Program-made: the position numbers and the translations under genes
NCBI GenBank assembly: GCA_000004695.1
Contig: CM000150.2
Location: 160,001 to 224,000, forward strand
DNA: 64,000 nucleotides
DNA from: Dictyostelium discoideum
Taxonomy: Eukaryota
Reading direction: 5' to 3'
The notes under the pieces: model-generated
What the model saw: only the letters and a program-made list of their open reading frames with translations
Told to the model about the DNA's origin: nothing
The model's database searches: none
Shown here: in pieces, positions 1 through 55,487 of the stretch
Layout of the letters: every line of letters starts with the position of its first letter
Position numbering within the stretch: position 1 is the stretch's first letter

Positions 1-1024
1 AGGTGTCGCACAAAGATGTTTAAATTACATTTTTGATAAATATAAAAATAAAATTGCAAATTTTTTAAATAATTTAAAAAATGCAAAAATAATAGATAAC
101 AAACCAAAACCTTCAATTTCACTATTTGCAAATAAAACAAGGAAAGGAAGAGAGAATAGATCAATATTATATTACCTTTTAATATCAATTAAAAATCAAA
201 TATCAAATGATGATTTTTTAATTATGGAACAATTAGTAACTATATGTTTTAAATTATATAGTGACTCTTTTGATGAAAATGATTTAAATTCACTTCAAGT
301 ATTAATTGAATCGTTTAATGCAAAAGTAAATTTAATTATTGAAACAGAAATAATGAATTTCCACTTGTTGTTACATTATCCAATTTATATAAAAAATTGG
401 GGTGCACCAAAATACACTTCAGCTGAAACTTTTGAAGCACAATTATCAAGAATTAAAAATTATTTAAAAAATAATACAAATAATAGGGATGAACAATATG
501 AAAGGGTTACCAAATTAAACATGGTGAAATTTTTTAATTCAGTAGATAAATTAAAAAGTATTGAACCTGAAAGTACAGCATTAATTATTGGTAACAAAAT
601 AAAAAATCCAGATAATTTAGATAACATAAAAATTAAATTAGATTCATTATTTCAAAATTATAAAAATATAACTTTTCACTCATCAATTAAAAATAATAAA
701 GAAATATACAATGTTGGTGATGCAGTTGAAGTTGCATCAGATAATGAACTTTCAGGTAGATGGTCAGGTATTATCAATTCAATATCAATGATTGAAATGG
801 ATGATAACATAATAAAACATGCAATATTATTAAATTATTTTGACAAATATGTTGGTGACCAATTTAATAAATACCATTTTCTTTCAAATGAATTAAATTA
901 TATTACATATGATAATATTCTAAATAATGTTATACCAATTCAAATTGATGATACCAATTACCTTATTATTTACAAGTGCCACGATAAATTCTCGGCTTCA
1001 AAAAATAAAAAATCAAAAAATTAA
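1..1024 (+). CDS. C-terminal part of a Tnp2/EnSpm-family transposase-like protein (DUF4218-like motif). The reading frame is open from base 2, so the N-terminus lies upstream of the window.
   Basis: ORF 224..1024 continues in frame back to position 2 with no stop. The segment NFHLLLHYPIYIKNWGAPKYTSAETFEAQLSRIKNYLKN fits the DUF4218 signature of CACTA/Tnp2 transposases (H-L-x2-H-L ... G-P ... W-M-Y-x-F-E-R ... L-K-x4-N). It is adjacent to CACTA-like subterminal repeats. Confidence 0.45.
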   Translation, partial: GVAQRCLNYIFDKYKNKIANFLNNLKNAKIIDNKPKPSISLFANKTRKGRENRSILYYLLISIKNQISNDDFLIMEQLVTICFKLYSDSFDENDLNSLQVLIESFNAKVNLIIETEIMNFHLLLHYPIYIKNWGAPKYTSAETFEAQLSRIKNYLKNNTNNRDEQYERVTKLNMVKFFNSVDKLKSIEPESTALIIGNKIKNPDNLDNIKIKLDSLFQNYKNITFHSSIKNNKEIYNVGDAVEVASDNELSGRWSGIINSISMIEMDDNIIKHAILLNYFDKYVGDQFNKYHFLSNELNYITYDNILNNVIPIQIDDTNYLIIYKCHDKFSASKNKKSKN

Positions 1025-1142
1025 AAACTTTTTTACATAATTTTTACATTGTTATGTAAATAATGATTTTTTTTTTTTAATTTTTTTTCATTTTCGGGCA
1101 GACTGAAAAAGCGAAAATGATTTCAATACATATTTTTTTAAA

Positions 1143-1481
1143 ATGAATTCATCTGCAAATTTTATAGCACCAAATGGTAATGTACCTGATTTTAATCAAT
1201 CACCAATCCAAAGAAGAACAAACAATAATATTTCTATCGGAGATGAATCATTTAATAATTTGTCAATAGGTAATGTATTAGGAAATGCAAATGTTCCAAA
1301 CCCAATGGAAAACCAGAGAATAATAATTAGAAGAGTTCCAAGGCCAACTGTTCCACCAATCCAAGAAACAGTGCAAATAGCCACAAACCCACGTGTAACA
1401 TACATATTGGAATACGAAAGTCTTCAGAAAGTTTGTCAAAGTAAATAATATTCAGATGGCGATGTATGTTACCAGATTAAT

Positions 1482-1516
<35 letters not shown>

Positions 1517-1797
1517 AAATAATTTATATAAATAGGTTTCAAATTTCTTTATTACTGGAATAATTAAACAAGCTGGTGGTAGTAACGAAGATTGTACCAG
1601 TCAAAATATTTTTGCAAGGTTAACGAAATGGGTAAGTAATAAGGAAAGTAACACAAGAACAAAAGTAGCTGACAGTTTAGCCATTTATTCAAAAGGTGAA
1701 AAAAACCACAATCTTAAAGTTTATATTTCCGATAGCCAAGTATTTTTTGGTAATGAAATTGTGTGTATAAATTAATATAATCAAAATTTACAAAATA

Positions 1798-1836
<39 letters not shown>

Positions 1837-2112
1837 GAAATATAGTTTTCCCCTGCTTTACTTTCTCTTTTTCTCAGCCACATTAATTATGAAAATTATC
1901 AAAATGATATTTTCATAAAAGAGTTTGTTGACTCTTGTAAAACAGGTGAAGAGAAACACTGGTACCCAGATTCAGTTCCTTTAATAAAGAGATTAATTTC
2001 AATATTAAATGATTTTAGTAGTAAATTTGACTCTAAGGCTAAAATGAGAAAAGATGCACAAGAAGCTTTTCAATTTCCTCATTCTGCACTTTACTTAAAT
2101 TCTTCCCAATAA
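1143..2112 (+). CDS. 3-exon gene (exons about 1143-1440, 1573-1760, 1846-2112) encoding a roughly 250 aa hypothetical protein. It may be an accessory gene of the CACTA-like element.
   Basis: Donor GTAAAT at 1441 in phase 1, acceptor AG at 1571-1572, donor GTGTGT at 1761, acceptor AG at 1844-1845, stop TAA at 2110-2112. The introns are very AT-rich. An inverted partial copy lies at 31797-32761. Confidence 0.45.
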
Positions 2113-2234
2113 AAGTTTTAAATTAATTTTTAAAATTTAAAAATAAATTTTATTATTAAAAAATAATATATCTGTGTATTTTATTGTTCACATAAAATTT
2201 TATTTCATACTATAGTTTTAAAATAATTTTTAAA

Positions 2235-2507
2235 TTTTTTTTATTTATTTTTGTAGCATTATAAATAAGGTGCTTTTAAATGTAATTATTAATAAACTTT
2301 AAAATTCAATTTTTAAGGAGCTTTAAAATGTAATTATTAATATAATTTTTAATCATATTTTTAAGTAATTTTAAAGAGCATTATAAAGTTAATTTTAAAG
2401 GGCATTTTAAAGGTAATTTTAAAGGTAATTTTAAAGGTCATTTTAAAGGTAATTTTCAAGGTCATTTTAAAGTTAATTTTAAAGGTAAGTTTAAAGGTGA
2501 TTTTAAA
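2235..2507. repeat. Subterminal repeat region of the CACTA-like DNA transposon (units of ggt[ag]atttt[ac]aagg). It was split by the Skipper array and continues at 31518.
   Basis: Tandem/inverted 13-14 bp units identical to those inside the MITE copies at 19575-20290. The sequence at 31518-31680 continues the same repeat phase and ends in the terminus ...CATCGCTGTG. Confidence 0.5.
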
Positions 2508-2940: not shown

Positions 2941-5900
2941 CTATAAACTCTTGGGTGTAACTTTTCTTCCTGATCTAGTTGTTTTAATTTGTAAACTAAG
3001 ATCAAGTTCATCATCCTCACTTGAAGTATTTTGATTTCTTGATTTTCTTTTCTTTGATTGGTTTCTTTGATTTGAGATGGAGTTTTGTTGTCTTGGAGTA
3101 ATTGGTTGCAATGTTTGAGAACTTTGAACTTCTTGGGAGAGTGGAGGTGACACAATTGGCTCAACGGCTTCTGTAGTTACATTCTCTCTTTCTCTTCTTG
3201 AGTTCAATTGTTTCTTCTGCACGTTATTCCAATACTCTCTGACTAACTCTTCACAGTCTGTATCGACTTCTTTGATCCATTCAGGTTCTGGGTAACCTTT
3301 GAACTTCACTAGGTACATCTTTTTGACTTTATCGTGATTGAGAATACTTTCAACTTCGTAACTTGCTTCGTCCATCTCCTCAGGTTCGGGCATCGATATC
3401 TCTTCTCTTAACCACTCACTGTCCTCGTATAGTTTTACGATTTGATCCTTGTTGAACACATTGTGTTTCTTTGGATAACCTACTAAATCGAGTGTTACAT
3501 TATTACCATGAACGGCAGTGATTATGAATGGTCCACAATTCTTGGATTCAAGTTTGTGAGAGATTAGATCTTTTGAAAGATTAGTTTGGAAGAATTTTCT
3601 TTTAACCATCACCTTTTCTCCGACTACGAAGATAACATCACCACGACCTCGGTTGTAATACTTTTGAGCATTGATTTGAGCATCTAGTATATTATCACGG
3701 ACAATCTTTTTGATGTTGCTCATTGGTATACGAGTCTTTGTTAATGAATTGAAATGATTAACGGGAGTTGGTGGATTGAATCCATATACGATTTGGAATG
3801 GTGACATCTTTGTAGACTTGCTCATTGATGAGTTCATTGCAAATTCAATAAGTGGAATGATATCTGACCAATTCTCCCCATACTCTGTTGAGGCTTTAGT
3901 TAATATTCTAATAATTTCTCTATTCATTCTTTCAGTTTGACCATCAGCTTGTGCTCTGTGTGCCACAGTCATCTTGAGTTTAGAATCCATCGTCTTTGCC
4001 CATCTCTCCCATATTTCTGAAAGGAATCTTGGATCTCTATCGGAGACGATTGTTCTTGGATAACCATGGAGTCTGAACACATGATTCAACAATAATTGAG
4101 CAGTATGTTGGGCATCTATTGTCTTATGACATGGAACTATATGAACCATTTTAGATAATCTACAAACAATGACACAAACTTGATCGACTTCAACTGTAAA
4201 TCCGTTTATTGCATACATTGTTTTTGGTAGCGATAAGAAATCGATTGATATATCTCTCCAAACTTCAAAGGGAATTTCTAAACTTTGGAGTATACCATTA
4301 TCTTTACGGTTAATGTTCAATTGACATGTTGCACAAGACTTTATGTACCTCTTGATAATAGAAAACATTTCTTTGAAATAGTAATCTTGTCTTATATTAT
4401 TGTATGTGATATCTAAAGCGTGATGACCACTATATTTGGTATCGTGATATTCTCTAATGACGGTATGAATAGTTTCTTTATCTATGATGATTAATTTCTT
4501 GAACCCATCTTCACTAAGGTAACAGATATCATTAATTTCTTCAATGCATAAATTTGGATTCTTTTTCATCTCTAATAGCCATTGAGAATTGATTTGTTCT
4601 TCCTTAATTTTATTTAAAAACGATTCATCCCATTGGAAATTATCATATTTACGAGATAAGAAATCAGCTATACCATTCTTTTTACCACTTATATGTCTTA
4701 ATTCATAATCAAATTCTTTAATATATTTCATATAATTATCTTGTCTCTTTGTGAACGGTTTATCGTTTGACTTATTGATAATATATGTAAGATTTTGGTG
4801 ATCAGTGTAGATTGAAACCTTTTTACCAATTAATAAATGTTGAAACTTCTTTAGAGAATCAATGATTGAAAGGAACTCTCTATCACCTATGCTGTACCTC
4901 TTTTGAGTATCAGTAAGTTTTCTACTATGAAACCAAATGACTTTGAATTTATTACCTTGAATTTGATATAATACACCTGATAATGCTTTATCACTAACAT
5001 CACAATACAAGTGAAAACTACCATTGTTTAGATTATTATTATCTGAATGGATTGGCATGTCTGTTGATGCTTTAACCTTTTCGATATCTATTGGTATGGA
5101 GTTATCTTGTTCAATTGGAATAGCGACAATATTTTCACCTTCAAACTCTTTCTTTAGATTATTGAATTCTTTGAGTGATTCATCAGAAAGTGTTTTCTTG
5201 TTTTTTCCTTTTGATTCTTTGGAAAGGTGATAGGTTTTTTCAGCGTAATTTTCAATGTGTCTCCTGAAGAATCCAAAAAGACCTAATGCAGCTTCAGCTT
5301 CTTTGGCGTTTCTTGGTTCAGGTAACTCAGAGATAGCTCTAACCTTTGCAGCTCTTGGAGATATACCATCTTTATGAATGTGGAAACCAAGGAAATCTAC
5401 TTCAGTCTTTAACATTTCACTCTTTTCTCTTGAAATGAATAATAGGTACTTTCTACAATATAGAAGCATTCTAATGATTTCAATGAAATGTACCATGTAG
5501 TCGAGTTTTGAATGAACCAAAAGATCATCAAAGTATTGTAATAAACTTTTGATTTTTCCAAATATTTCGACCATCAATCTGGCGAATGTGGATGGAGAGT
5601 TGACTAAACCTTGTGGCATTCTAGTATATTCAAATTTACCAATATGTGTAATGAAAGCGGTGTACTTTGCGTGTTCTGGATTAATTAACACTTGGAAATA
5701 ACCCATAATCATGTCAAACTTTGAGAAAAGCTTTGAATCTTTACATTGATTTAAAAGACTATCAACCGGAGTGAATGGATGATCGTCTCTAACAGTGACT
5801 TTATTTAGTTGACGATAGTCGTGGACTACACGCCATGAATCTCTCTTCTTTAATAACATGATTGGAGATGAGTAATTTGATTCTGATCTTTTGATAATAC

Positions 5901-7221
5901 CTAAATCTATAAATTTGAGAACCATTTCTTCGACATGTCTCTTATGATCATCTGTTGAATAATAGATTTGTTTCTTTGTTGGTTCAACATCTTGATCTTT
6001 CTTTAATATGATATTATGTATGATATTACCTCTTCTGGAATTGTTAATCTGATCTGGAATATCAGGAAGTTTATCTACTATAACATCTTCGAATGAATCA
6101 TTAATGAAATCACGTACTGCTTGTATCTCTTCTTCTTCTGGATTAGTTTTAACCAGTATATCACAAAGTTGTGATGGGATGCTTTCAACAAACTTTGTAA
6201 CTTGTTCTTTGATATCTTCATCATCATCTAGTAGATTATGTGACTGTGACTGATTATCATTGGATACGGTAACATGTTTTCTTGGAGCTTTTACATTACA
6301 ATGTAATTGATTCGACTGTTGATAATTAATTTTGTATGTACTGTTATTCAACTTGATTATTTTATCTTTTTGGTTAATGATAGAGTCCTTAAGGATATCA
6401 TTACCGAAAAGTACATCAATGATATCCAATTCTATAATAAAGAAGTTATGAATTTCATTGTTAACTTGTATATTGATTTGTTCAACAAACTCTTCTTTGA
6501 CGTCTAGTAGCGGGAAGTTAATCTTGGCTTTCGTTTTGTGAACGTGGTTCTTCATATCTTTTGAAATCAACCTCTTATTGATTAAACTAACATTACTTCC
6601 AGTATCGAGAATTAATTTGAATTGTTTTTCTTTGGAATGAGAGTTAATTATAATCTTGGGTTTATCCATGTTTTCTCTGTTTGGAACGATTAAACATTTT
6701 AGAGTCGGAATGAGAGCAGTATCACTTGTACCAGTACTATGTAATAATGAGATGATTGGTTTGTTTGTTTCTTTATCGAATTTAATTGTGTAAAGCAATT
6801 CATCTTCTTCATCATTAATTAATTCTTTACTAGAATTTAATATCTTTGGACGATTGAATATGTTAACAGTATAGTTTTTATCTTGAACATTTGTTAACTC
6901 TGTTGGAGTATTAAATTCAATCTTCTGTGGTTTATACTTCATCTCTGATTCAACAGCTTTTGGAATTGGAACGGTTGTATCAGGAACTAGTTTTATACCA
7001 TATGAGTCTTTGACGTATTCTTTAAGTTTGTTGATGTTTTTATGAACATCATGTTGCTGGCTTTGTTGATGTAACTGTTTAACAATGTTTTGATTATAAA
7101 AAGAGTTAAGAGTATAAAGTGAATCTTTGTTCACTGGGTAATCATTATCCTCAAGGTGATGATATTGTGAAATTTTATAATTTTTATTTAAAATCTTTGA
7201 CTTGGACTCATCACCTTCATC
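2941..7221 (-). CDS. pol: Skipper pol polyprotein (protease DTG, RT YFDD, RNase H, integrase HHCC/DDE, C-terminal chromodomain), expressed by readthrough of the in-frame TGA at 7222-7224.
   Basis: 1397 aa ORF with motifs LILDTGSNVSLI, YFDDLLV, TDHQNL, HHALDITYNN...CATCQ, and the chromodomain YEVESILNHDKVKKMYLVKFKGYPEPEWIKE. It is in the same frame as gag (7134 and 8388 are both 0 mod 3), separated from it by a single TGA. Confidence 0.85.
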   Translation of the reverse strand, partial: DEGDESKSKILNKNYKISQYHHLEDNDYPVNKDSLYTLNSFYNQNIVKQLHQQSQQHDVHKNINKLKEYVKDSYGIKLVPDTTVPIPKAVESEMKYKPQKIEFNTPTELTNVQDKNYTVNIFNRPKILNSSKELINDEEDELLYTIKFDKETNKPIISLLHSTGTSDTALIPTLKCLIVPNRENMDKPKIIINSHSKEKQFKLILDTGSNVSLINKRLISKDMKNHVHKTKAKINFPLLDVKEEFVEQINIQVNNEIHNFFIIELDIIDVLFGNDILKDSIINQKDKIIKLNNSTYKINYQQSNQLHCNVKAPRKHVTVSNDNQSQSHNLLDDDEDIKEQVTKFVESIPSQLCDILVKTNPEEEEIQAVRDFINDSFEDVIVDKLPDIPDQINNSRRGNIIHNIILKKDQDVEPTKKQIYYSTDDHKRHVEEMVLKFIDLGIIKRSESNYSSPIMLLKKRDSWRVVHDYRQLNKVTVRDDHPFTPVDSLLNQCKDSKLFSKFDMIMGYFQVLINPEHAKYTAFITHIGKFEYTRMPQGLVNSPSTFARLMVEIFGKIKSLLQYFDDLLVHSKLDYMVHFIEIIRMLLYCRKYLLFISREKSEMLKTEVDFLGFHIHKDGISPRAAKVRAISELPEPRNAKEAEAALGLFGFFRRHIENYAEKTYHLSKESKGKNKKTLSDESLKEFNNLKKEFEGENIVAIPIEQDNSIPIDIEKVKASTDMPIHSDNNNLNNGSFHLYCDVSDKALSGVLYQIQGNKFKVIWFHSRKLTDTQKRYSIGDREFLSIIDSLKKFQHLLIGKKVSIYTDHQNLTYIINKSNDKPFTKRQDNYMKYIKEFDYELRHISGKKNGIADFLSRKYDNFQWDESFLNKIKEEQINSQWLLEMKKNPNLCIEEINDICYLSEDGFKKLIIIDKETIHTVIREYHDTKYSGHHALDITYNNIRQDYYFKEMFSIIKRYIKSCATCQLNINRKDNGILQSLEIPFEVWRDISIDFLSLPKTMYAINGFTVEVDQVCVIVCRLSKMVHIVPCHKTIDAQHTAQLLLNHVFRLHGYPRTIVSDRDPRFLSEIWERWAKTMDSKLKMTVAHRAQADGQTERMNREIIRILTKASTEYGENWSDIIPLIEFAMNSSMSKSTKMSPFQIVYGFNPPTPVNHFNSLTKTRIPMSNIKKIVRDNILDAQINAQKYYNRGRGDVIFVVGEKVMVKRKFFQTNLSKDLISHKLESKNCGPFIITAVHGNNVTLDLVGYPKKHNVFNKDQIVKLYEDSEWLREEISMPEPEEMDEASYEVESILNHDKVKKMYLVKFKGYPEPEWIKEVDTDCEELVREYWNNVQKKQLNSRRERENVTTEAVEPIVSPPLSQEVQSSQTLQPITPRQQNSISNQRNQSKKRKSRNQNTSSEDDELDLSLQIKTTRSGRKVTPKSL

Positions 7222-7224
7222 GAG

Positions 7225-8388
7225 TCATTGTTGCTTTTTGGCTGATGGACCTGGATTGGCTTTGGCATCGACCGGATCAATTCTACATGTAGATGTGGAG
7301 TGATTTGATTTACCACAATTGAGACAGTAGCCTTTGTTTTGACGGTAAACGATGAAACTGCTTCTTATCTTTTTGAGGTCTACCTTAGAGTCTTTTCTTA
7401 TTTCGGGTAATATTGCAGCTCTAATCTTATCAGCTTGAGCATCAAAGGAATTCCTGTTATGAGAGTTATGATTTGGAGTAGCATGATTCTTTTTTAATAG
7501 AAACTTCTCATCAGTATTCGATGCAGAATCGGAAGGTCTTCTTCTCGAGAACTTATCAGCATTGTTAAGAACCAACTCGGTGATGGCTTCACGACACTCG
7601 GTGATATCGGTTTGAGTGTTGAGTTTGATTGCAACATCAGTTTGTAACCAGTCTGGTACGACCATCTTTAACAAAGCAAGGATATTATTATCTAAAATTG
7701 ATCTTAGATACTCTAATTGAACTTCAGCAGTACCATGGATGAGATACACCGGATTAATTACATTGTGGTAACTCATAATGGCTTCGATGTTTTTTATAAC
7801 ATCTTGGGCTGAGTAGCAGTTACGATGGTTAATAGCTTCGACTACTTTAGTGTTGGCAGCTTCGTAGTCAGTTTTGAATGGAACCAAAGTCTTGGATCTA
7901 AAGTTACGGTGGATTAGCTTCTTTAATGTTTCACCTTCAATTTTATCGTTGTTCTTAACTGATTCATTGTGGGTAGGTTGAAGCAATTGAAATAATTCAT
8001 TTGATGCAGCACCATTGTCCATAATGGTCTTCAAGGTTGGTTCAACACCATTCTGGGAGCAGTGGATGGTAAAGAGATTCATGAAGATGACAGCAGTGGC
8101 AGCATTTTTTAAAGCGTCAATGGTTTTAGCTTCAATCGAATTGGTCTTTGATTTCTTTGGCACTTTCTCTCTGACTTCGACGTCGGATACATCAGTGCTT
8201 TCAGTTGAATAAATTTCATCATCAACTTCAGTGGGACGAAGAGTCTTTTTTGATTTTACTTGAACAGTAATAGCATCATCGGAGGCAGTTGTCACTTCAG
8301 CGGCACGTTTGGCGGTGGAAGACACTTTGGCTTTACGGATGGCTTTCTTTGAATGAGTAGTAGTTGATGACATGACTTTCACCAACAA
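7225..8388 (-). CDS. gag: Skipper gag (CCHC zinc knuckle).
   Basis: 387 aa ORF ending in CLNCGKSNHSTSTC (C-x2-C-x4-H-x4-C). It is repeated at 29222-30385 and partially at 13832-14493. Confidence 0.8.
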   Translation of the reverse strand: MLVKVMSSTTTHSKKAIRKAKVSSTAKRAAEVTTASDDAITVQVKSKKTLRPTEVDDEIYSTESTDVSDVEVREKVPKKSKTNSIEAKTIDALKNAATAVIFMNLFTIHCSQNGVEPTLKTIMDNGAASNELFQLLQPTHNESVKNNDKIEGETLKKLIHRNFRSKTLVPFKTDYEAANTKVVEAINHRNCYSAQDVIKNIEAIMSYHNVINPVYLIHGTAEVQLEYLRSILDNNILALLKMVVPDWLQTDVAIKLNTQTDITECREAITELVLNNADKFSRRRPSDSASNTDEKFLLKKNHATPNHNSHNRNSFDAQADKIRAAILPEIRKDSKVDLKKIRSSFIVYRQNKGYCLNCGKSNHSTSTCRIDPVDAKANPGPSAKKQQ

Positions 8389-9114
8389 TTATATATAAAA
8401 TTTATTAAATATAATTTAATTTTATAATTTAATTTTTTTATTTAATTTACATAATTTAATTATATAATTTAATTTAATTTATTTAATTTAATTTAATTTA
8501 ATTTTTAATTAAATAATTAAATATAAGTATTAATATATGTTAACTGTTATTCCACTAATATATTTTTATTGTGGTGTCTTTATATTATTTAATTGATAAT
8601 AAATATTATCTTAAATTATTTTAATTATAACAATGCATCAATATAACTGTTATTCCACTAATAATTTATATTGTGGTGTCTTTATTTAACTGTTATTCCA
8701 CTAATAATTTATATTGTGGTGTCTTTATTTAACTGTTATTCCACTAATAATTTATATTGTGGTGTCTTTGTTTAACTGTTATTCCACTAATAATTTATAT
8801 TGTGGTGTCTTTGTATTTGAGCATTATTATTAAATTAATTGATACAATCTTGTTTTATATTACTTTATAAAAGATGCATGTTTACAATGTGAGTAGGAAG
8901 TGTCGTTGTACCGCCTAAGCAGTACAGCGTTAATCTTGCAAACAGAAGGGCCATTGTAATGCATTTTTATTTTGTTTTAAATACTACTGTTATTCCTCTA
9001 ATCTGAAGAGTCGACTTCTTCATCATGAGGTGTCATTGTATACGAAATATAAGGATTGTATCTAATTATTTGTTTTAATGTATTTGTTTTATGTTAAAAT
9101 TAGAAAAAAAAAAG
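8389..9114 (-). repeat. Skipper 5' leader, including a 43-bp tandem repeat array (about 8640-8815, 4-5 units of aactgttattccactaataatttatattgtggtgtctttattt).
   Basis: Direct tandem units are seen in the sequence. The homologous leader in copy 3 (30645-30895) carries about 6 units. Confidence 0.7.
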
Positions 9115-9504
9115 TGTAAAAGTCACTCACACTAATCTTCAATCCATTGTCACATTTGTTCAATCTTTTATCAAACAGTCCAATCTTTAAAGTAATGTTT
9201 TTTAATATGAAGGATAGAAAGAGTGAAAGACTAATATCATAAAAGTAAACATACATAAAAGAGATAATTAAAAGTAAGGGCGTTATTCCAACTAAACCGA
9301 AAAATCAGAATTTTTATTATTTTTTTAAATTTTAATTTAATTTAATTTTTTTTAATTTAATTTTTTATTTTTTGACTGAAAAAATAAAAAATTAAAAAAT
9401 AAAAATAAAAATTAAATGAAATATTTTTACATGGAGATGCGCGAATTTGTTACGTTGTTGAGCTCATACTAACTTTAAATTAATTTAGTTTTGAGTCTCT
9501 AACA
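9115..9504 (-). repeat. Skipper LTR shared between copy 2 (as its 3' LTR) and copy 1 (as its 5' LTR).
   Basis: Identical to 2508-2897. A PPT at 9505-9522 is followed by the pol stop of copy 2. Confidence 0.8.
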
Positions 9505-9547
9505 CCTTCCCCTTCCTTCTTTAGGCTAGCTATGGCTCAGAGGTGGA

Positions 9548-12500
9548 CTATAAACTCTTGGGTGTAACTTTTCTTCCTGATCTAGTTGTTTTAATTTGTA
9601 AACTAAGATCAAGTTCATCATCATCACTTGAAGTATTTTGATTTCTTGATTTTCTTTTCTTTGATTGGTTTCTTTGATTTGAGATGGAGTTTTGTTGTCT
9701 TGGAGTAATTGGTTGCAATGTTTGAGAACTTTGAACTTCTTGGGAGAGTGGAGGTGACACAATTGGCTCAACGGCTTCTGTAGTTACATTCTCTCTTTCT
9801 CTTCTTGAGTTCAATTGTTTCTTCTGCACGTTATTCCAATACTCTCTGACTAACTCTTCACAGTCTGTATCGACTTCTTTGATCCATTCAGGTTCTGGGT
9901 AACCTTTGAACTTCACTAGGTACATCTTTTTGACTTTATCGTGATTGAGAATACTTTCAACTTCGTAACTTGCTTCGTCCATCTCCTCAGGTTCCGGCAT
10001 CGATATCTCTTCTCTTAACCACTCACTGTCCTCGTATAGTTTTACGATTTGATCTTTGTTGAACACATTGTGTTTCTTTGGATAACCTACTAAATCGAGT
10101 GTTACATTATTACCATGAACGGCAGTGATTATGAATGGTCCACAATTCTTGGATTCAAGTTTGTGAGAGATTAGATCTTTTGAAAGATTAGTTTGGAAGA
10201 ATTTTCTTTTAACCATCACCTTTTCTCCGACTACGAAGATAACATCACCACGACCTCGGTTGTAATACTTTTGAGCATTGATTTGAGCATCTAGTATATT
10301 ATCACGGACAATCTTTTTGATGTTGCTCATTGGTATACGAGTCTTTGTTAATGAATTGAAATGATTAACGGGAGTTGGTGGATTGAATCCATAAACGATT
10401 TGGAATGGTGACATCTTTGTAGACTTGCTCATTGATGAGTTCATTGCAAATTCAATAAGTGGAATGATATCTGACCAATTCTCCCCATACTCTGTTGAGG
10501 CTTTAGTTAATATTCTAATAATTTCTCTATTCATTCTTTCAGTTTGACCATCAGCTTGTGCTCTGTGTGCCACAGTCATCTTGAGTTTAGAATCCATCGT
10601 CTTTGCCCATCTCTCCCATATTTCTGAAAGGAATCTTGGATCTCTATCGGAGACGATTGTTCTTGGATAACCATGGAGTCTGAACACATGATTCAACAAT
10701 AATTGAGCGGTATGTTGGGCATCTATTGTCTTATGACATGGAACTATATGAACCATTTTAGATAATCTACAAACAATGACACAAACTTGATCGACTTCAA
10801 CTGTAAATCCGTTTATTGCATACATTGTTTTTGGTAGCGATAAGAAATCGATTGATATATCTCTCCAAACTTCAAAGGGAATTTCTAAACTTTGGAGTAT
10901 ACCATTATCTTTACGGTTAATGTTCAATTGACATGTTGCACAAGACTTTATGTACCTCTTGATAATAGAAAACATTTCTTTGAAATAGTAATCTTGTCTT
11001 ATATTATTGTATGTGATATCTAAAGCGTGATGACCACTATATTTGGTATCGTGATATTCTCTAATGACGGTATGAATAGTTTCTTTATCTATGATGATTA
11101 ATTTCTTGAACCCATCTTCACTAAGGTAACAGATATCATTAATTTCTTCAATGCATAAATTTGGATTCTTTTTCATCTCTAATAGCCATTGAGAATTGAT
11201 TTGTTCTTCCTTAATTTTATTTAAAAACGATTCATCCCATTGGAAATTATCATATTTACGAGATAAAAAATCAGCTATACCATTCTTTTTACCACTTATA
11301 TGTCTTAATTCATAATCAAATTCTTTAATATATTTCATATAATTATCTTGTCTCTTTGTGAACGGTTTATCGTTTGACTTATTGATAATATATGTAAGAT
11401 TTTGGTGATCAGTGTAGATTGAAACCTTTTTACCAATTAATAAATGTTGAAACTTCTTTAGAGAATCAATGATTGAAAGGAACTCTCTATCACCTATGCT
11501 GTACCTCTTTTGAGTATCAGTAAGTTTTCTACTGTGAAACCAAATGACTTTGAATTTATTACCTTGAATTTGATATAATACACCTGATAATGCTTTATCA
11601 CTAACATCACAATACAAGTGAAAACTACCATTGTTTAGATTATTATTATCTGAATGGATTGGCATGTCTGTTGATGCTTTAACCTTTTCGATATCTATTG
11701 GTATGGAGTTATCTTGTTCAATTGGAATAGCGACAATATTTTCACCTTCAAACTCTTTCTTTAGATTATTGAATTCTTTGAGTGATTCATCAGAAAGTGT
11801 TTTCTTGTTTTTTCCTTTTGATTCTTTGGAAAGGTGATAGGTTTTTTCAGCGTAATTTTCAATGTGTCTCCTGAAGAATCCAAAAAGACCTAATGCAGCT
11901 TCAGCTTCTTTGGCGTTTCTTGGTTCAGGTAACTCAGAGATAGCTCTAACCTTTGCAGCTCTTGGAGATATACCATCTTTATGAATGTGGAAACCAAGGA
12001 AATCTACTTCAGTCTTTAACATTTCACTCTTTTCTCTTGAAATGAATAATAGGTACTTTCTACAATATAGAAGCATTCTAATTATTTCAATGAAATGTAC
12101 CATGTAGTCGAGTTTTGAATGAACCAAAAGATCATCAAAGTATTGTAATAAACTTTTGATTTTTCCAAATATTTCGACCATCAATCTGGCGAATGTGGAT
12201 GGAGAGTTGACTAAACCTTGTGGCATTCTAGTATATTCAAATTTACCAATATGTGTAATGAAAGCGGTGTACTTTGCGTGTTCTGGATTAATTAACACTT
12301 GGAAATAACCCATAATCATGTCAAACTTTGAGAAAAGCTTTGAATCTTTACATTGATTTAAAAGACTATCAACCGGAGTGAATGGATGATCGTCTCTAAC
12401 AGTGACTTTATTTAGTTGACGATAGTCGTGGACTACACACCATGAATCTCTCTTCTTTAATAACATGATTGGAGATGAGTAATTTGATTCTGATCTTTTG

Positions 12501-13828
12501 ATAATACCTAAATCTATAAATTTGATAACCATTTCTTCGACATGTCTCTTATGATCATCTGTTGAATAATAGATTTGTTTCTTTGTTGGTTCAACATCTT
12601 GATCTTTCTTTATTATGATATTATGTATGATATTACCTCTTCTGGAATTGTTAATCTGATCTGGAATATCAGGAAGTTTATCTACTATAACATCTTCGAA
12701 TGAATCATTAATGAAATCACGTACTGCTTGTATCTCTTCTTCTTCTGGATTAGTTTTAACCAGTATATCACAAAGTTGTGATGGGATGCTTTCAACAAAC
12801 TTTGTAACTTGTTCTTTGATATCTTCATCATCATCTAGTAGATTATGTGACTGTGACTGATTATCATTGGATACGGTAACATGTTTTCTTGGAGCTTTTA
12901 CATTACAATGTAATTGATTCGACTGTTGATAATTAATTTTGTATGTACTGTTATTCAACTTGATTATTTTATCTTTTTGGTTAATGATAGAGTCCTTAAG
13001 GATATCATTACCGAAAAGTACATCAATGATATCCAATTCTATAATAAAGAAGTTATGAATTTCATTGTTAACTTGTATATTGATTTGTTCAACAAACTCT
13101 TCTTTGACGTCTAGTAGCGGGAAGTTAATCTTGGCTTTCGTTTTGTGAACGTGGTTCTTCATATCTTTTGAAATCAACCTCTTATTGATTAAACTAACAT
13201 TACTTCCAGTATCGAGAATTAATTTGAATTGTTTTTCTTTGGAATGAGAGTTAATTATAATCTTGGGTTTATCCATGTTTTCTCTGTTTGGAACGATTAA
13301 ACATTTTAGAGTCGGAATGAGAGCAGTATCACTTGTACCAGTACTATGTAATAATGAGATGATTGGTTTGTTTGTTTCTTTATCGAATTTAATTGTGTAA
13401 AGCAATTCATCTTCTTCATCATTAATTAATTCTTTACTAGAATTTAATATCTTTGGACGATTGAATATGTTAACAGTATAGTTTTTATCTTGAACATTTG
13501 TTAACTCTGTTGGAGTATTAAATTCAATCTTCTGTGGTTTATACTTCATCTCTGATTCAACAGCTTTTGGAATTGGAACGGTTGTATCAGGAACTAGTTT
13601 TATACCATATGAGTCTTTGACGTATTCTTTAAGTTTGTTGATGTTTTTATGAACATCATGTTGCTGGCTTTGTTGATGTAACTGTTTAACAATGTTTTGA
13701 TTATAAAAAGAGTTAAGAGTATAAAGTGAATCTTTGTTCACTGGGTAATCATTATCCTCAAGGTGATGATATTGTGAAATTTTATAATTTTTATTTAAAA
13801 TCTTTGACTTGGACTCATCACCTTCATC
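9548..13828 (-). CDS. pol: Skipper pol, copy 2.
   Basis: 1397 aa ORF almost identical to copy 1 (a few substitutions, e.g. R to C). Confidence 0.85.
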   Translation of the reverse strand, partial: DEGDESKSKILNKNYKISQYHHLEDNDYPVNKDSLYTLNSFYNQNIVKQLHQQSQQHDVHKNINKLKEYVKDSYGIKLVPDTTVPIPKAVESEMKYKPQKIEFNTPTELTNVQDKNYTVNIFNRPKILNSSKELINDEEDELLYTIKFDKETNKPIISLLHSTGTSDTALIPTLKCLIVPNRENMDKPKIIINSHSKEKQFKLILDTGSNVSLINKRLISKDMKNHVHKTKAKINFPLLDVKEEFVEQINIQVNNEIHNFFIIELDIIDVLFGNDILKDSIINQKDKIIKLNNSTYKINYQQSNQLHCNVKAPRKHVTVSNDNQSQSHNLLDDDEDIKEQVTKFVESIPSQLCDILVKTNPEEEEIQAVRDFINDSFEDVIVDKLPDIPDQINNSRRGNIIHNIIIKKDQDVEPTKKQIYYSTDDHKRHVEEMVIKFIDLGIIKRSESNYSSPIMLLKKRDSWCVVHDYRQLNKVTVRDDHPFTPVDSLLNQCKDSKLFSKFDMIMGYFQVLINPEHAKYTAFITHIGKFEYTRMPQGLVNSPSTFARLMVEIFGKIKSLLQYFDDLLVHSKLDYMVHFIEIIRMLLYCRKYLLFISREKSEMLKTEVDFLGFHIHKDGISPRAAKVRAISELPEPRNAKEAEAALGLFGFFRRHIENYAEKTYHLSKESKGKNKKTLSDESLKEFNNLKKEFEGENIVAIPIEQDNSIPIDIEKVKASTDMPIHSDNNNLNNGSFHLYCDVSDKALSGVLYQIQGNKFKVIWFHSRKLTDTQKRYSIGDREFLSIIDSLKKFQHLLIGKKVSIYTDHQNLTYIINKSNDKPFTKRQDNYMKYIKEFDYELRHISGKKNGIADFLSRKYDNFQWDESFLNKIKEEQINSQWLLEMKKNPNLCIEEINDICYLSEDGFKKLIIIDKETIHTVIREYHDTKYSGHHALDITYNNIRQDYYFKEMFSIIKRYIKSCATCQLNINRKDNGILQSLEIPFEVWRDISIDFLSLPKTMYAINGFTVEVDQVCVIVCRLSKMVHIVPCHKTIDAQHTAQLLLNHVFRLHGYPRTIVSDRDPRFLSEIWERWAKTMDSKLKMTVAHRAQADGQTERMNREIIRILTKASTEYGENWSDIIPLIEFAMNSSMSKSTKMSPFQIVYGFNPPTPVNHFNSLTKTRIPMSNIKKIVRDNILDAQINAQKYYNRGRGDVIFVVGEKVMVKRKFFQTNLSKDLISHKLESKNCGPFIITAVHGNNVTLDLVGYPKKHNVFNKDQIVKLYEDSEWLREEISMPEPEEMDEASYEVESILNHDKVKKMYLVKFKGYPEPEWIKEVDTDCEELVREYWNNVQKKQLNSRRERENVTTEAVEPIVSPPLSQEVQSSQTLQPITPRQQNSISNQRNQSKKRKSRNQNTSSDDDELDLSLQIKTTRSGRKVTPKSL

Positions 13829-14493: not shown

Positions 14494-14593
14494 NNNNNNN
14501 NNNNNNNNNNNNNNNNNNNNNNNNNNNNNNNNNNNNNNNNNNNNNNNNNNNNNNNNNNNNNNNNNNNNNNNNNNNNNNNNNNNNNNNNNNNNN
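14494..14593. other. Assembly gap (100 N).
   Basis: Run of N characters. Skipper gag lies on one side and DIRS-1 ORF1 on the other. Confidence 0.99.
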
Positions 14594-19574: not shown

Positions 19575-20290
19575 ACCTATAAACACAGCAAAGAAAAATG
19601 CACCTTTAAAGCAAATTTAAAGTAAAGTTGATTTAAATTGGATTTAAATTGAATTTAAAGCCGCGTTTAAAAAATTCATTTTTAAGGTAATTTTTAAGGT
19701 AATTTTTAAGATATTTAAAAATGCCTTTAAAATTTGCTTAAAAATTTATTTTAAAGGTAATTTTAAAGGTGATTTTTAAGGTAATTTTTAAAATGATTTT
19801 TAAGATATTTAAAAATACCTTTAAAATTTATTTTAAATTAATTTTAAATAGGATTTAAAGTAGATTTAAAGTAGATTTAAAGTGAATTTAAATTTCCTTA
19901 ATATATAAATTTAAGGTTTTTAATAAAAAAGATCTAATTATAGATAAAAAAAATGGGGATAAAATATTCTATCATTTTTAAATTTTCATCAAAGCAATCA
20001 AATGGTCGGGGGATCGAATCCCTTTTGGTAATTTTTGAAAAAATTAAAAAAAAAAAATTTAAAAAATTTATCCGTTAAATAACGGCTTCGAACTCAGGAC
20101 CTCGCTTTTAAAGCGATTAAAAAGGTAATTTTAAAGGTAATTTTAAAGGTAATTTTAAAGGTGATTTTAAAGTAACCTTAAAAATTACCTTTCAAATTAC
20201 CTTTAAAATTGCTTTAATTCAGGACTTTAAAGCAAATTTAAATTTAATTTAAAGCGAATTTAAAGGTGGTTTTTTCTTTGCTGTGAAATA
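19575..20290. mobile_element. Non-autonomous MITE-like derivative of the CACTA-like element (about 716 bp). Termini are CACAGCAAAGAAAAATGCACCTTTAAAGCAAATTTAAA and its reverse complement; subterminal repeats are present, and an internal tRNA-like module is deletion-bearing.
   Basis: Perfect terminal inverted repeat seen directly (19575 cacagcaaag ... 20290 ctttgctgtg), flanked by AAA/AAA. Partial copies occur at 20636-21191, 32762-33135, 35500-35920 and 37640-37920. Confidence 0.65.
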
Positions 20291-21191: not shown

Positions 21192-21897
21192 TAATGCCGA
21201 TTTTTTTCATTTTTTGTTTTGTTTCTAATTTTATTTTGAGGATTTGAAAAATCTTGTTTATTTGGTTTTGAATTGTGAAAGTCAATAATATCTTTTTGAT
21301 TTCTAAAATTTCCTTCTTTTAATAAATAATCGACACCTCTTGGTTTATCACATGTATGACATGAGAAATCATTGCAATTATAATGGTTAATCCTACAAGA
21401 TGATCTAAATTCTGTTATATGCATTGTTAATCCATATGGTATAATTTCATAATCATTTTCATTATTATCTTTAATTTTTAATTTATTATTAAATTGCGCT
21501 GAAAATAATTTTTTAATTGTTTGATGTATATTGTGAAACCATTCTTTTGGAACAATAAAAAAAACAATTTTATTATTTTTAAAAAATGGACCAACATAAT
21601 TTTCAAAATCTACCAATAATGTATAATCTGATCTACCTTGATGACTCATTCCTTCACTAAATATTCTTAATAAAATAAATTTATATAAAATTGAATTTTT
21701 TATTTTATTAAACTGTTCTCCAGATTTATAATTTTTATAAATACCTTGCTCATAGTCTTTTGAGAAATCTAAATATTCTAAAAAATTTTTTTTTTCAATT
21801 AATAATTTAACAACTGAATAAATTTCAAAATAAAAAATTGACTCTTCATTTGTAACTCAAAAAGTGACCATCGATAGGTAAATTTGCTAAAAATATA
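21192..21897 (-). pseudogene. Frameshifted fragment of the C2H2 zinc-finger ORF family (homologous to the C-terminal half of 35959..36984), lying between two facing CACTA-like termini.
   Basis: ORF 21191..21649(-), plus an upstream frame that reads ...SIFYFEIYSVVKLLIEKKNFLEYLDFSKDYEQGIYKNYKSGEQFNKIKN...LLRIFSEG. This aligns with ...SIFYFEIKKVLETLLNKKQFFERIDFDTDFETGIYTNYKSGQQFKDLKN...LLRIFTDS of the 36984 gene. Termini sit at 21182-21191 and 21898-21907. Confidence 0.5.
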
Positions 21898-22569: not shown

Positions 22570-22870
22570 TTTAAGTATTCTTATTAAGTGAACTTTATAA
22601 TTACCCTTAATAATTACCCTTATTAATTATAATTAATAATTCCACTTAATAGTTATACTTAATAATTATACTTAATAATTTTAATTATTAATTATATTTT
22701 ATTATTATACTTAATAATTATGCTTAATAAATATACTTTTTAATTATACTTAATAAATATACTTAATAAATATACTTTTTAATTATACTTATTAATTATA
22801 CTTAATAAATATACTTAATAATTATACTTAATAATTATACTTAATAAATATACTTATTAAGTATACTTAA
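22570..22870. repeat. AT-rich minisatellite with units of about 13-15 bp (tatacttaataa[at]tat).
   Basis: Direct tandem repetition seen in the sequence. Confidence 0.7.
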
Positions 22871-22904
22871 TAATAGTACTATTTACGTTCCTACTTTAAA
22901 GATG

Positions 22905-24607: not shown

Positions 24608-26469
24608 ATGTCTACCACTGTTAATAATAATGATGCCTCTAGTAGTAGTGCCTCTGCCTCTAATAGCGCTGAATCCTTTGATTTAAGAATAAAATCAATG
24701 GAGGATCAAATCAACAACCTTTCTTTAGCCTTTACAAGATTCATGAAAGAACCTATTTTCTCATCTAATTCCAATTCACGTAGCCAACCTTCTCATGATA
24801 ACTCTGACACCGAGAATGAACAAAGTGAAGATGAATCAAGTAACAATGTCGATGTTCCAACCGATTATCAATTATCCGATACCTTACTTGGTCAGTACAA
24901 ACATATGGTAAACAATCAAGGTTTACTCGTCGAAGGAATCAAGAATCTACCATCAATGGTCAAACAAGGTTATTACATGGTAAAACTCGATATCAAGAAA
25001 GCCTACCTCCACGTTTTAGTAGATCCGCAATACAGAGACTTATTCCGCTTCGTGTGGAAAGGTTCGCACTACCGTTGGAAAACAATGCCGTTGGGGTTAT
25101 CGACAGCTCATGGTATCTTTACAATGTTGTTAAGACCTGTACTTGGAATGTTGAGAGATATCAACGTATCCGTCATCGCTTACTTGGACGATCTATTAAT
25201 CGTCGGTTCAACAAAAGAAGAATGTTTATCCAACCTCAAAAAGACGATGGACTTACTTATCAAACTAGGTTTCAAGTTAAATCTAGAAAAGAGTGTTCTC
25301 GAACCAACTCAATCAATTACGTTTCTCGGATTACAAATCGATTCAAAATCAATGAAGCTTCTTGTTCCCAAAGAAAAGAAGAAAAGTGTCATCAAGGAAA
25401 TAAGAAACTTTTTAAAACTAGATTGTTGCTCCCCAAGAAAGCTTGCTGGTTTAAAAGGAAAGCTAATTGCACTGAAAGATGCAGTTATCCCATTCAGACT
25501 TTACACTCGTAGAACAAACAAGTTTCACTCTCAGTGTCTGACTCTAGCCAATGGAGATTGGGATCAATCATTCCCCATTCCTCAAGAGGTCAAGTCAGAG
25601 ATTTCACATTGGTTAACAGTTCTAAACCAATGGAATGGAAAAGAAATCAGTCTGTTTCCAAGTTACGACTATGTTCTTACAACCGATGCCTCGGAATCAG
25701 GTGCAGGTGCCACTCTCAAGAAAGGAAACAAGGTAATCAAAACTTGGTCATTCCAGTGGTCAACAACTCAATCAAACATGTCGTCAAATCGTCGAGAAAT
25801 GCTCGCGCTGCTAATGGCCTATCAAGCGCTATGTCAGAAACTGAACAACTGCAAGCTGAAGATTCAAACCGACAACACTACCACTCTCTCTTACATCAAT
25901 CGCCAGGGTGGTCAGATACAGGATCTCTCAGTTCTGTTCGAACAACTTTGGAAACAATGCCTCAAGAAGAAAGTGAACTTGATTGGAGAGCATATTCCAG
26001 GATTCTTCAATGTAAAAGCCGACCACCTCAGTCGTCTTTCAGAGATGAATCACAAATCATCGTCCAGAGTAATCAAGAGTTACAACTGGCAACTGAAGAA
26101 GGAAGTGTTCAATCGCATCCAACTTCAATTCGGTCAAATACAGATGGATCTGTTCGCATCTCACTTCAACCATCAAACGAACAACTACTCAACAATCAGA
26201 ATGAATGCACTCCACCTCGATTGGAGTCAATGGAAGCAATGTCTGGCCTTTCCACCACCCATTCTTTTGCCTTCTATCCTGGAGAAGATGAACTCATCCA
26301 GTTCGAAGAAGGTTTCTATAATACTGATCTTCCCAATCTGGAGATCAGCAACTTGGTATCCGATGATTCAAGCTCAAGTTCCTCGTCATCATCGTCACAT
26401 GTTTCCTCAAGTACTGGGAACATTCCAAGAAGTATTGACCAAACAATCAGTAGAGTCGATACCAATCCA
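24608..26469 (+). CDS. DIRS-1 ORF with an in-frame internal deletion that fuses the ORF1 N-terminus (about 105 aa) to RT (YLDD), RNase H (TDAS...E...D) and downstream domains. It runs into the assembly gap.
   Basis: 620 aa are readable: MSTTVNNN...HMVNNQGLLVE|GIKNLPSMVKQGYY...IAYLDDLLIVG...VLTTDASESGAGA...IQTDNTTTLSYINRQGG...ADHLSR. Copy B carries another 45 aa of ORF1 after LLVE. Confidence 0.75.
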
Positions 26470-26569
26470 NNNNNNNNNNNNNNNNNNNNNNNNNNNNNNN
26501 NNNNNNNNNNNNNNNNNNNNNNNNNNNNNNNNNNNNNNNNNNNNNNNNNNNNNNNNNNNNNNNNNNNNN
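26470..26569. other. Assembly gap (100 N).
   Basis: N run between DIRS-1 copy C (+) and Skipper pol copy 3 (-). Confidence 0.99.
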
Positions 26570-30385: not shown

Positions 30386-31197
30386 TTATATATAAAATTT
30401 ATTAAATATAATTTAATTTTATAATTTAATTTTATAATTTAAATTATATAATTTAATTATATAATTTAATTTAATTTATTTAATTTAATTTAATTTAATT
30501 TTTAATTGAATAATTAAATATAAGTATTAATATATGTTAACTGTTATTCCACTAATATATTTTTTTTGTGGTGTCTTTATATTATTTAATTGATAATAAA
30601 TATTATCTTAAATTATTTTAATTATAACAATGGCATCAATATAACTGTTATTCCACTAATAATTTATATTGTGGTGTCTTTATTTAACTGTTATTCCACT
30701 AATAATTTATATTGTGGTGTCTTTGTTTAACTGTTATTCCACTAATAATTTATATTGTGGTGTCTTTGTTTAACTGTTATTCCACTAATAATTTATATTG
30801 TGGTGTCTTTGTTTAACTGTTATTCCACTAATAATTTATATTGTGGTGTCTTTGTTTAACTGTTATTCCACTAATAATTTATATTGTGGTGTCTTTGTAT
30901 TTGAGCATTATTATTAAATTAATTGATACAATCTTGTTTTATATTACTTTATAAAAGATGCATGTTTACAATGTGAGTAGGAAGTGTCGTTGTACCGCCT
31001 AAGCAGTACAGCGTTAATCTTGCAAACAGAAGGGCCATTGTAATGCATTTTTATTTTGTTTTAAATACTACTGTTATTCCTCTAATCTGAAGAGTCGACT
31101 TCTTCATCATGAGGTGTCATTGTATACGAAATATAAGGATTGTATCTAATTATTTGTTTTAATGTATTTGTTTTATGTTAAAATTAGAAAAAAAAAG
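30386..31197 (-). repeat. Skipper 5' leader of copy 3, with about 6 units of the 43-bp tandem repeat (30645-30895).
   Basis: Collinear with 8389-9114 but with more repeat units. Confidence 0.7.
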
Positions 31198-31517: not shown

Positions 31518-31680
31518 TTAAAGGTGGTTTTAAAGGTGATTTTAAAGGTGATTTTAAAGGTCATTTAAAAAATTGCTTTTAAATTAATTTTTAAGTGACT
31601 TTTTTATAGGACTTTAAATCCACTTTTAATTTAATTTAAAGTTGCTTTAAAGGTGTAATTTTCATCGCTGTGTATTAATA
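31518..31680. repeat. Right-hand subterminal repeats and terminus (...GTGTAATTTTCATCGCTGTG) of the CACTA-like element. The 5-bp TTAAA at 31518-31522 duplicates the one at 2503-2507.
   Basis: The repeat phase continues from 2507 across the Skipper array. The terminus resembles the MITE termini. Confidence 0.55.
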
Positions 31681-31796
31681 ATGCTACAAAAATAAATAAA
31701 AAAAATTTAAAAATTATTTTAAAACTATAGTATTAAATAAAATTTTATGTGAACAATAAAATACACAGATATATTATTTTTTAATAATAAAATTTA

Positions 31797-32089
31797 TTTT
31801 TAAAGTAGAAACTTTTATTGGGAAGAATTTAAGTAAAGTGCAGAATGAGGAAATTGAAAAGCTTCTTGTGCATCTTTTCTCATTTTAGCCTTAGAGTCAA
31901 ATTTACTACTAAAATCATTTAATATTGAAATTAATCTCTTTATTAAAGGAACTGAATCTGGGTACCAGTGTGACTCTTCACCTGTTTTACAAGAGTCAAC
32001 AAACTCTTTTATGAAAATATCATTTTGATAATTTTCATAATTAATGTGGCTGAGAAAAAGAGAAAGTAAAGCAGGGGAAAACAGTATTT

Positions 32090-32139
<50 letters not shown>

Positions 32140-33135: not shown

Positions 33136-33138
33136 TTG

Positions 33139-33403
33139 GAGATCGAAAAAAACAAACAACAACAACAATCTCTTTTTTTGATTATTTCATTTTTCATATA
33201 AAAAAGACTTAAAAAACAAATAAATAAATAAATAAACTATTTTAAAAAGCCATCTTTTTACTTTATTGTAATTTATTATTTGTTTCGTTTTGAGAATTTT
33301 GCGTAGCAAAATTTTCAAAAAAAAAGCAAAAAATAATCAGATCGAAAAAAACAAACAACAACAATCTCTTTTTTTGATTATTTCATTTTTCATATAAAAA
33401 AGA

Positions 33404-33439
<36 letters not shown>

Positions 33440-35201: not shown

Positions 35202-35204
<3 letters not shown>

Positions 35205-35446: not shown

Positions 35447-35499
35447 AAAAAAAAAATAAATAAAATGAGATCTAGCATCTCAAGGAGAAGCAAATAATA

Positions 35500-35920: not shown

Positions 35921-35958
35921 AATCATTTGGTACTACAAATAATAATAATTTATTATTT

Positions 35959-44415: not shown

Positions 44416-44453
<38 letters not shown>

Positions 44454-45013: not shown

Positions 45014-45050
<37 letters not shown>

Positions 45051-46329: not shown

Positions 46330-46362
<33 letters not shown>

Positions 46363-55441: not shown

Positions 55442-55487
<46 letters not shown>

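Follow-up and report, generated by a model that had tools for sequence, protein, structure and literature searches.

The window examined here is a 64,000-nucleotide stretch of AT-rich DNA from Dictyostelium discoideum, and at 1-2507 and 31518-31672 it contains the right ~2.67 kb of a ~5-kb transposon bounded by terminal inverted repeats (TIRs), referred to below as element A. We take element A, with a probability of about 80%, to be the right part of a class II (cut-and-paste) DDT transposon of D. discoideum, most likely DDT-A, whose transposase is a DDE enzyme of the type found in the CACTA/Mirage/Chapaev (CMC) group, Transib and RAG1. This particular copy is decayed and interrupted by the retrotransposon Skipper, but it belongs to a catalogued Dictyostelium transposon; what is new is the assignment to a superfamily with named putative catalytic residues, a target-site duplication (TSD) of 2 bp, and a predicted BAH-like domain at the transposase C-terminus.

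The extent of element A was established by comparison with contigs encoding relatives (L001-L006). L001 carries a 5056-bp copy (6135-11190) with perfect 26-bp inverted ends (CACAGCAAAGAAAATCACACCTTAAA), and its alignment with element A places the start of the window ~2.4 kb inside the element. Window 1-2507 joined to 31518-31680 aligns in one piece with L001 8541-11190 (76% identity over 2747 columns), the alignment stopping exactly at window 31672, and an uninterrupted right end in L006 (12880-13126) is nearly identical to element A joined across the Skipper junction. The block between the two parts opens with the start of a Skipper long terminal repeat (LTR; TGTAAAAG) at 2508 and closes with the last LTR end (...CTCTAACA) at 31517, and the TSD of the insertion, TTAAA, is seen at 2503-2507 and 31518-31522. 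One Skipper insertion split the right subterminal array of element A, as a preliminary description of this DNA had proposed; the colinearity with L001 and L006 together with the TTAAA duplication also rules out the alternative that 1-2507 and 31518-31672 are parts of two separate elements. The terminus itself lies at 31672, eight bases before the position 31680 given in that description. The full element is ordered as TIRs, 12-bp subterminal arrays, a transposase gene of ~800 codons and a three-exon gene (gene 2) of ~270 codons. Element A was previously proposed to be an autonomous copy, a claim that has to be withdrawn because gene 2 contains a nonsense codon, a 29-kb insertion lies within the element and its left half is outside the window; the copy is very probably immobile.

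The TIRs of full elements are imperfect and ~26-35 bp long, starting 5'-CACAGC(A/G)AAGAAAA, and the right end of element A at 31672 reads ...CATCGCTGTG / ...TTTTCATCGCTGTG. Termini of the CACAG type, as first reported, are strongly over-represented: allowing up to 2 mismatches, the window has 13 matches to the 14-mer CACAGCAAAGAAAA where chance would give 1.4, and nine of the 13 begin with CACAG and are element ends. All of the ends examined have the form CACAGC...GCTGTG, and thus the 5'-CA..TG-3' termini that define CMC/CMCT elements. An inverted CACAG terminus also lies 5' of the transposase gene in the full-length relatives, where one had been anticipated (L001 6135, L003 6465, L005 6985 and L006 9004), that of element A itself being outside the window. 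Tandem Repeats Finder reports period-12 repeats with consensus ATTTTAAAGGTA (13.1 copies) at 2357-2512 and a period of 12 again at 31518-31570, and when the Skipper block and one TTAAA are taken out these form an unbroken 12-bp register of ~16 units of TTTTAAAGGTNA. The dense subterminal array and its resumption at 31518 in the same phase are therefore as originally described, with a period of 12 bp in place of the reported 13-14 bp. The 12-bp motif is restricted to subterminal regions and absent from element interiors.

All seven intact end pairs fit a TSD of 2 bp (Table 1), which is within the range of 2-5 bp for CMC/CMCT elements, and comparisons with empty sites back two of these pairs (L001, and L006 577-1266). 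The 3-bp AAA flanks that had been attributed to the short copies are present only at the miniature inverted-repeat transposable element (MITE) at 19584-20285, and a 3-bp TSD was rejected with the other six pairs against it. CMCT elements mostly have 5'-CA..TG-3' ends and TSDs of 2-5 bp (PMC12730594), and some CACTA-type elements are on record as having CAC..GTG ends together with TSDs of 2 bp (PMC6004678).

The part of the transposase gene within the window is a frame open from nucleotide 2 to 1024, and its predicted product is 93-97% identical to the D. discoideum proteins P0018, P0003 and P0007; D. discoideum and D. cf. discoideum are the source of all the protein relatives. When 1.84 billion representative proteins were searched with a profile built from nine family members, 52 matches were obtained, of which 15 are family members and 37 are distant proteins (whole-library E values from 6e-9 to 1e-3). 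Eight of the 37 distant proteins match Pfam DUF4218 (best 1.4e-5) and two match DUF1258, a Caenorhabditis family; P0041 matches Transposase_21 (Tnp2) with 42.3 bits, the cut-off being 28.6, and P0033 has a weak Plavaka match. The tie of the DDT transposase to DUF4218, Transposase_21 and Plavaka is transitive only, passing through distant matches that carry those domains. An hhalign comparison of the family with five long distant proteins covers 354 columns, beginning at the first catalytic Asp and reaching the Glu (probability 98%, E 2e-13), and a reciprocal hidden Markov model (HMM) of five distant CMC-like proteins scores the window open reading frame (ORF) at 50 bits (E 1e-8 for a database of 1.8 billion sequences), with shuffled controls at no more than 5.6 bits. 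Judged by these comparisons the DDT transposase is a remote homologue of the CMC group, an assignment that holds at the superfamily level. The CMC/EnSpm-type family inferred in the preliminary description is sustained as regards remote CMC homology, TIRs and multiple copies, and needs amendment in that the elements end with CACAG instead of CACTA and make 2-bp TSDs.

An order of D, D, C(2)C, H(3-4)H and E is common to EnSpm/CACTA, Mirage, Chapaev, Transib, Plavaka and RAG1 (Kojima 2025, PMC12730594). The DDT transposase has the corresponding elements (Table 1), namely an RNase-H-like core bearing a putative DDE triad, together with zinc motifs of the C(2)C and H(3)H kind that characterize CMC/CMCT enzymes. 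The DUF4218-like block reported earlier, HLLLHYPIYIKNWGAPKYTSAETFEAQLSRIKNYLKN, is present in the window frame, although without a direct Pfam DUF4218 match, and this signature marks it as the putative H(3)H zinc motif plus catalytic Glu, a segment that Pfam models in plants as DUF4218. In the alignment of DDT with 34 distant proteins, conservation exceeds 90% at its two His residues, a Gly and the Glu, and the same 20-residue spacing separates H942 and E962 of RAG1. The segment DILHNILLG was considered as the site of the third catalytic residue and dropped, the Glu after H(3)H being the better candidate by the CMCT definition.

Structure prediction gives a similar placement. An AlphaFold2 (AF2) model of P0002 built on a 44-sequence alignment that includes distant proteins has a predicted local distance difference test score (pLDDT) of 70.4, with 80-96 over most of the core, and a predicted template modelling score (pTM) of 0.60; a model from an 11-sequence family-only alignment had a pLDDT of 34 and was discarded. 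Foldseek matches the P0002 model to the RAG1 core (E 3.8e-8, ~403 columns), a support for the fold that is not fully independent of the sequence result because the members of the alignment were selected by the DDT profile. The predicted layout consists of an N-terminal C2H2-type finger, the RNase-H-like core with its zinc module, and then a BAH-like domain formed by the last ~100 residues before a basic tail (motif YNVGDAVEV...GRWSGII...LLNYF). This C-terminal beta domain has a BAH fold in the model, and its best structural matches are all BAH domains (ZMET2; PBRM1, EBS, ASI1, Rsc2 and Sir3). There is no Pfam BAH match in the window ORF, a profile of the C-terminal domain found nothing relevant among PDB sequences, and a literature search for BAH together with transposase returned no relevant paper. 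The idea that distant CMC-like proteins share the BAH-like domain was rejected, neither HMM nor hhalign detecting it in them.

Several points count against this interpretation of element A. The window begins too far downstream to include the first two catalytic Asp residues of its own transposase or the C(2)C motif. The Pfam search suggested in the preliminary description gave no DUF4218 or Transposase_21 match for the window ORF or for 10 longer relatives, even at E <= 1-10, there was no direct match to the Plavaka model in the same set either, and PDB sequences yielded nothing relevant to a profile of the family alignment, so that the CMC link depends on methods for remote homology. For both hhalign and AF2 the distant proteins were picked by the DDT profile, and these two tests are hence not fully independent of the profile search. 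The BAH-like assignment derives from one medium-confidence model without sequence support, and the flanks of one TSD pair (32765/35915) are non-contiguous in the reference element. The name DDT-A was arrived at by elimination and from element sizes, and is a probable one.

Among other explanations, a bona fide En/Spm (Tnp2-family) CACTA element with a 3-bp TSD, present as an autonomous copy, is unlikely. Its CAC...GTG termini, subterminal repeats and two-gene layout are those of the DDT family, Transposase_21 and DUF4218 proteins are among the distant matches, and the termini have a putative resemblance to the En/Spm TIR, CACTACAAGAAAA. Yet 2 bp is the TSD in all seven pairs with 3 bp fitting one of them, the terminus is CACAG, Pfam Tnp2 and DUF4218 fail to match the window ORF or its 10 relatives, and the best distant matches are not Tnp2 proteins of the plant type, with DUF1258 and Plavaka-like ones among them; the nonsense codon in gene 2 and the 29-kb insertion speak against autonomy. 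Less probable still is membership of another superfamily with the RNase-H fold (Transib proper, P element or hAT), the likeness to CMC being only superficial, given that the sequence matches carry DUF4218, Transposase_21 and Plavaka rather than Transib, P or hAT domains, that termini and subterminal repeats fit CMC, and that a 2-bp TSD does not fit these elements (5 bp in Transib, 7-8 bp in P and 8 bp in hAT). A host gene pair beside AT-rich satellite DNA is scarcely credible, for while the database names are all 'hypothetical protein' and short repeats are common in a very AT-rich genome, there are many dispersed copies with the same TIRs at different loci and with different flanks, deletion derivatives and MITEs with the same ends, frequent stop codons and frameshifts, and pairs of empty and filled sites, which we count as having already refuted it.

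As a putative CMC-type family, DDT shares with CMC/CMCT elements the order D, D, C(2)C, H(3)H, E, the CAC...GTG termini, a short TSD and a RAG1-like predicted fold; a possible parallel to En/Spm lies in the short subterminal repeats and a second ORF. It differs from the former in being too divergent for Pfam Transposase_21 and DUF4218, and from CACTA elements in its CACAG terminus and in a TSD of 2 bp instead of the classical 3 bp. A TSD of 2 bp is also that of Mirage and of some animal CACTA elements.

The DNA transposons of D. discoideum are Tdd, DDT and thug, the last being a minor family that constitutes 0.1% of the genome (PMC5633606), and Tdd-4 and Tdd-5 encode integrase-like enzymes (PMC2836005). 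Tdd was rejected as the identity of the family, whose transposase is not integrase-like. With Tdd and thug eliminated, and from its size (~5 kb with 0.7-kb short derivatives) and context, the family is probably the catalogued DDT, in the form of DDT-A, and the 0.7-kb relatives are most likely DDT-S. The names DDT-A, DDT-B and DDT-S reportedly originate with Glockner et al. in 2001. DDT and Skipper, together with DIRS-1, are enriched in centromeres, where DDT copies cluster with their own kind (PMC2665215), and nesting with Skipper, DIRS-1 and its own kind is likewise seen in the window. The DNA transposases of D. discoideum have been described in a review as lacking significant similarity to known ones (PMC5633606), a statement that the present analysis contradicts for DDT. 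A literature search found no paper tying DDT to CMC or EnSpm, although a Repbase classification may exist.

The second, three-exon gene noted previously was recovered by tblastn with the annotated protein P0077, but the copy in element A has an in-frame TAA at 1446-1448 where intact copies encode Tyr102, and it is consequently a pseudogene. Every copy examined (L001, L002, L005 and L006), including the divergent L002 subfamily, has gene 2 immediately downstream of its transposase gene. The gene-2 family has 20 members, all from Dictyostelium and none with a Pfam domain; a scan of the gene-2 exons gave nothing meaningful, and the protein has no detectable similarity outside Dictyostelium or to TNPA. 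TNPA of En/Spm binds 12-bp subterminal motifs, and by this likeness the gene-2 protein is a candidate binder of the subterminal repeats.

A transposition pathway for DDT can be proposed in which the transposase, possibly with the gene-2 protein, would bind the 12-bp subterminal repeats and the TIRs, in parallel to TNPA and TNPD of En/Spm, would excise the element by DDE chemistry and would reinsert it with a 2-bp stagger. A possible role of the BAH-like domain is to tether the transposase to nucleosomes of heterochromatin, and this would account for DDT elements being nested in each other and in centromeric repeat clusters. There is a possible functional analogy here to the chromodomain integrases of chromoviruses, including that of Skipper, in which a C-terminal chromatin-reader-type domain is likewise accompanied by heterochromatic pile-up, although they have a chromo rather than a BAH-like domain and are retroviral-type integrases rather than DNA transposases. 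Distant CMC relatives differ from DDT in that no C-terminal BAH-like domain is detected in them by sequence. We suggest, tentatively and as an idea with the odds against it, that DDT represents a separate amoebozoan lineage of the CACTA/Transib/RAG1 type, with a BAH-like nucleosome reader steering it into heterochromatin (which would account for DDT nesting and for DDT copies constituting ~20% of Dictyostelium centromeres) and with the gene-2 protein as a lineage-specific binder of the 12-bp repeats.

Placing DDT in the CACTA/Transib/RAG1 group would supply a mechanism for the family, DDE chemistry with a zinc module, would extend this clade into the Amoebozoa, and names putative catalytic residues that are open to mutation. 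The BAH-like tail offers a testable explanation for the preference of DDT for centromeric, heterochromatic repeat clusters, and if it is correct a BAH-guided DDT would be the DNA-transposon counterpart to chromodomain-guided retrotransposons such as Skipper. For the many gene models of 'hypothetical proteins' (ACTFI*, DDB_G029xxxx) in new D. discoideum assemblies, annotation as transposon genes is now possible. Many of the family models in these assemblies, all with that name, are mis-spliced: that of P0018 omits the DILHNILLG segment, that of P0010 starts with translated 12-bp repeats (GDFKGNFKGNFKG...), and P0004 and P0003 are among the related-locus proteins noted for mis-spliced models.

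Table 1. Features of element A, its relatives and their surroundings. Positions refer to the window unless a contig is named; motifs are given without positions.
Feature	Position	Strand	Remarks
Transposase gene, 3' part	2-1024	+	Last 340 codons; stop 1022-1024; frame open at window edge; contains HLLLHYPIYIKNWGAPKYTSAETFEAQLSRIKNYLKN
H(3)H zinc motif and putative catalytic Glu	362-436	+	HLLLH 362-376; GAA 434-436, 20 residues downstream; from multiple alignment
C-terminal BAH-like beta domain of transposase (predicted)	653-955	+	~ORF residues 218-318; boundaries approximate
Element gene 2 (ORF2)	1143-2112	+	Exons ~1143-1467, 1536-1760, 1846-2112; tblastn of annotated 270-aa P0077
Right subterminal region, proximal	2113-2507	+	24/48-bp repeat zone 2266-2365, then 12-bp tandem units TTTTAAAGGTNA from ~2357
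Skipper-based cluster interrupting element A (not part of it)	2508-31517	.	~29 kb; 5-bp TSD TTAAA
Right subterminal region, distal, and right TIR	31518-31672	+	End ...GGTGTAATTTTCATCGCTGTG; colinear with L001 to its terminus 11190
Inverted fragment of second copy	31673-32764	-	Equivalent to 1165-2267 (gene-2 region); 95% identical; different stop codon
Non-autonomous short element	32765-35915	-	Ends like 0.7-kb MITEs; unrelated ~2.4-kb insert; flanks TA/TA
Left ~2 kb of copy	35916-37921	-	Left TIR at 37921, then 5' transposase from N-terminal C2H2-type finger through first catalytic Asp to ...VPNDWL
MITE of the same family, probably DDT-S	19584-20285	+	702 bp; both termini; AA(A) flanks
Second, partial MITE	end at 21190
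Divergent transposase gene fragment	21263-21849	-	48% aa identity; like L002/P0008/P0019 subfamily; between outward-facing termini 21190 and 21907
Motif, first Asp			DDT LLRIFSD; distant relatives WIDAVQ, NTDGCS
Motif, second Asp			DDT LTMDIPEF; distant relatives LSADTEG
Motif C(2)C, after second Asp			DDT ACHTC; distant relatives GCTFC
Motif DxxH..G			DDT DILHNILLG; distant relatives ENLHCIFEG
Motif H(3)H			DDT HLLLH; distant relatives, same pattern
Motif FE			DDT TFEAQ; distant relatives FEAWN
TSD	L001		CT/CT; related uninterrupted L002 sequence has single CT (empty site)
TSD	L004 5227-7148		AA/AA; 3-bp flanks TAA and AAT unlike
TSD	19584-20285 (MITE)		AA(A); sole pair also fitting 3 bp
TSD	32765-35915		TA/TA
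TSD	L006 9004-13126		GG/GG
TSD	L006 577-1266		GT/GT; within Skipper; flanks are window Skipper ...5663 and 5662..., with 2-bp overlap in three Skipper copies
TSD	L006 14872-15629		TA/TA
Skipper gag-pol ORFs	2941-7134, 9548-13741, 26447-29131
DIRS-1-like ORF in Skipper cluster	24608-26569		Reverse transcriptase, RNase H and Dam-like adenine methyltransferase domains
Nup93/Nic96 homologue	44176-46383	-
PI-PLC X-domain ORF	51634-52551
Four-LIM-domain protein	52715-54376	-
FtsH-like AAA/M41 protease	55254-57047	-

Further copies, deletion derivatives and 0.7-kb MITEs, all with the same ends, are present in L003, L004, L005 and L006. In the window, the sequence to the right of 31672 is another copy of the family and not flanking host DNA. 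The fragment at 31673-32764 lies exactly between two element termini and thus probably belongs to the copy that served as target for element A and the next element. The simplest reading of 31673-37921 would be that family members are nested into an older copy, which fits the reported tendency of DDT to cluster with its own kind (PMC2665215); since the reference element does not have the two flanks of the element at 32765-35915 side by side, a deletion must be assumed in addition. These flanks (32752-32764 and 35916-35935) come from different parts of the older copy, the start of gene 2 and the transposase at ...VPNDWL respectively, and share a near-identical 12-bp stretch (CATTTGGT[G/A]CTA), a likeness that may be due to chance or be the trace of a microhomology-mediated rearrangement.

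The insert within this short element (33139-35526) has a 444-aa ORF without a Pfam match at 33516-34850. Direct repeats of ~310 bp (33396-33705 and 35161-35435, 87% identical) and an A58 run at 35145-35202 bound it. Its composition is strongly skewed (GC skew -0.30, AT skew +0.36), and none of the other retrieved loci contained the insert. The minus-strand copy has, at its left end, two like-oriented termini separated by 234 bp (37687 and 37921), a region in which a related L006 copy is unlike the window, with 88 bp versus 30 bp between aligned blocks. A 13-bp tandem array (ACTTAATAATTAT, 21.8 copies) at 22592-22874, ~700 bp inside the element with left terminus 21907, may be the subterminal repeat of another subfamily.

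The left 38 kb of the window is a nest of mobile elements with many fragments of the DDT-type family, and the Skipper cluster also holds nested DDT-type elements. Gaps of 100 N at 14494-14593 and 26470-26569 and a single N at 31308 lie inside the cluster, the internal order and copy number of which are hence not fully assembled. The Skipper elements contain a 43-bp tandem repeat that differs in copy number, with 3.9 copies at 8644-8812 versus 6.0 at 30642-30898, the units being 99% identical. Ordinary host genes begin at ~41-44 kb (range 41000-62300), directly after the transposon nest, so that the edge of a repeat cluster falls inside the window.

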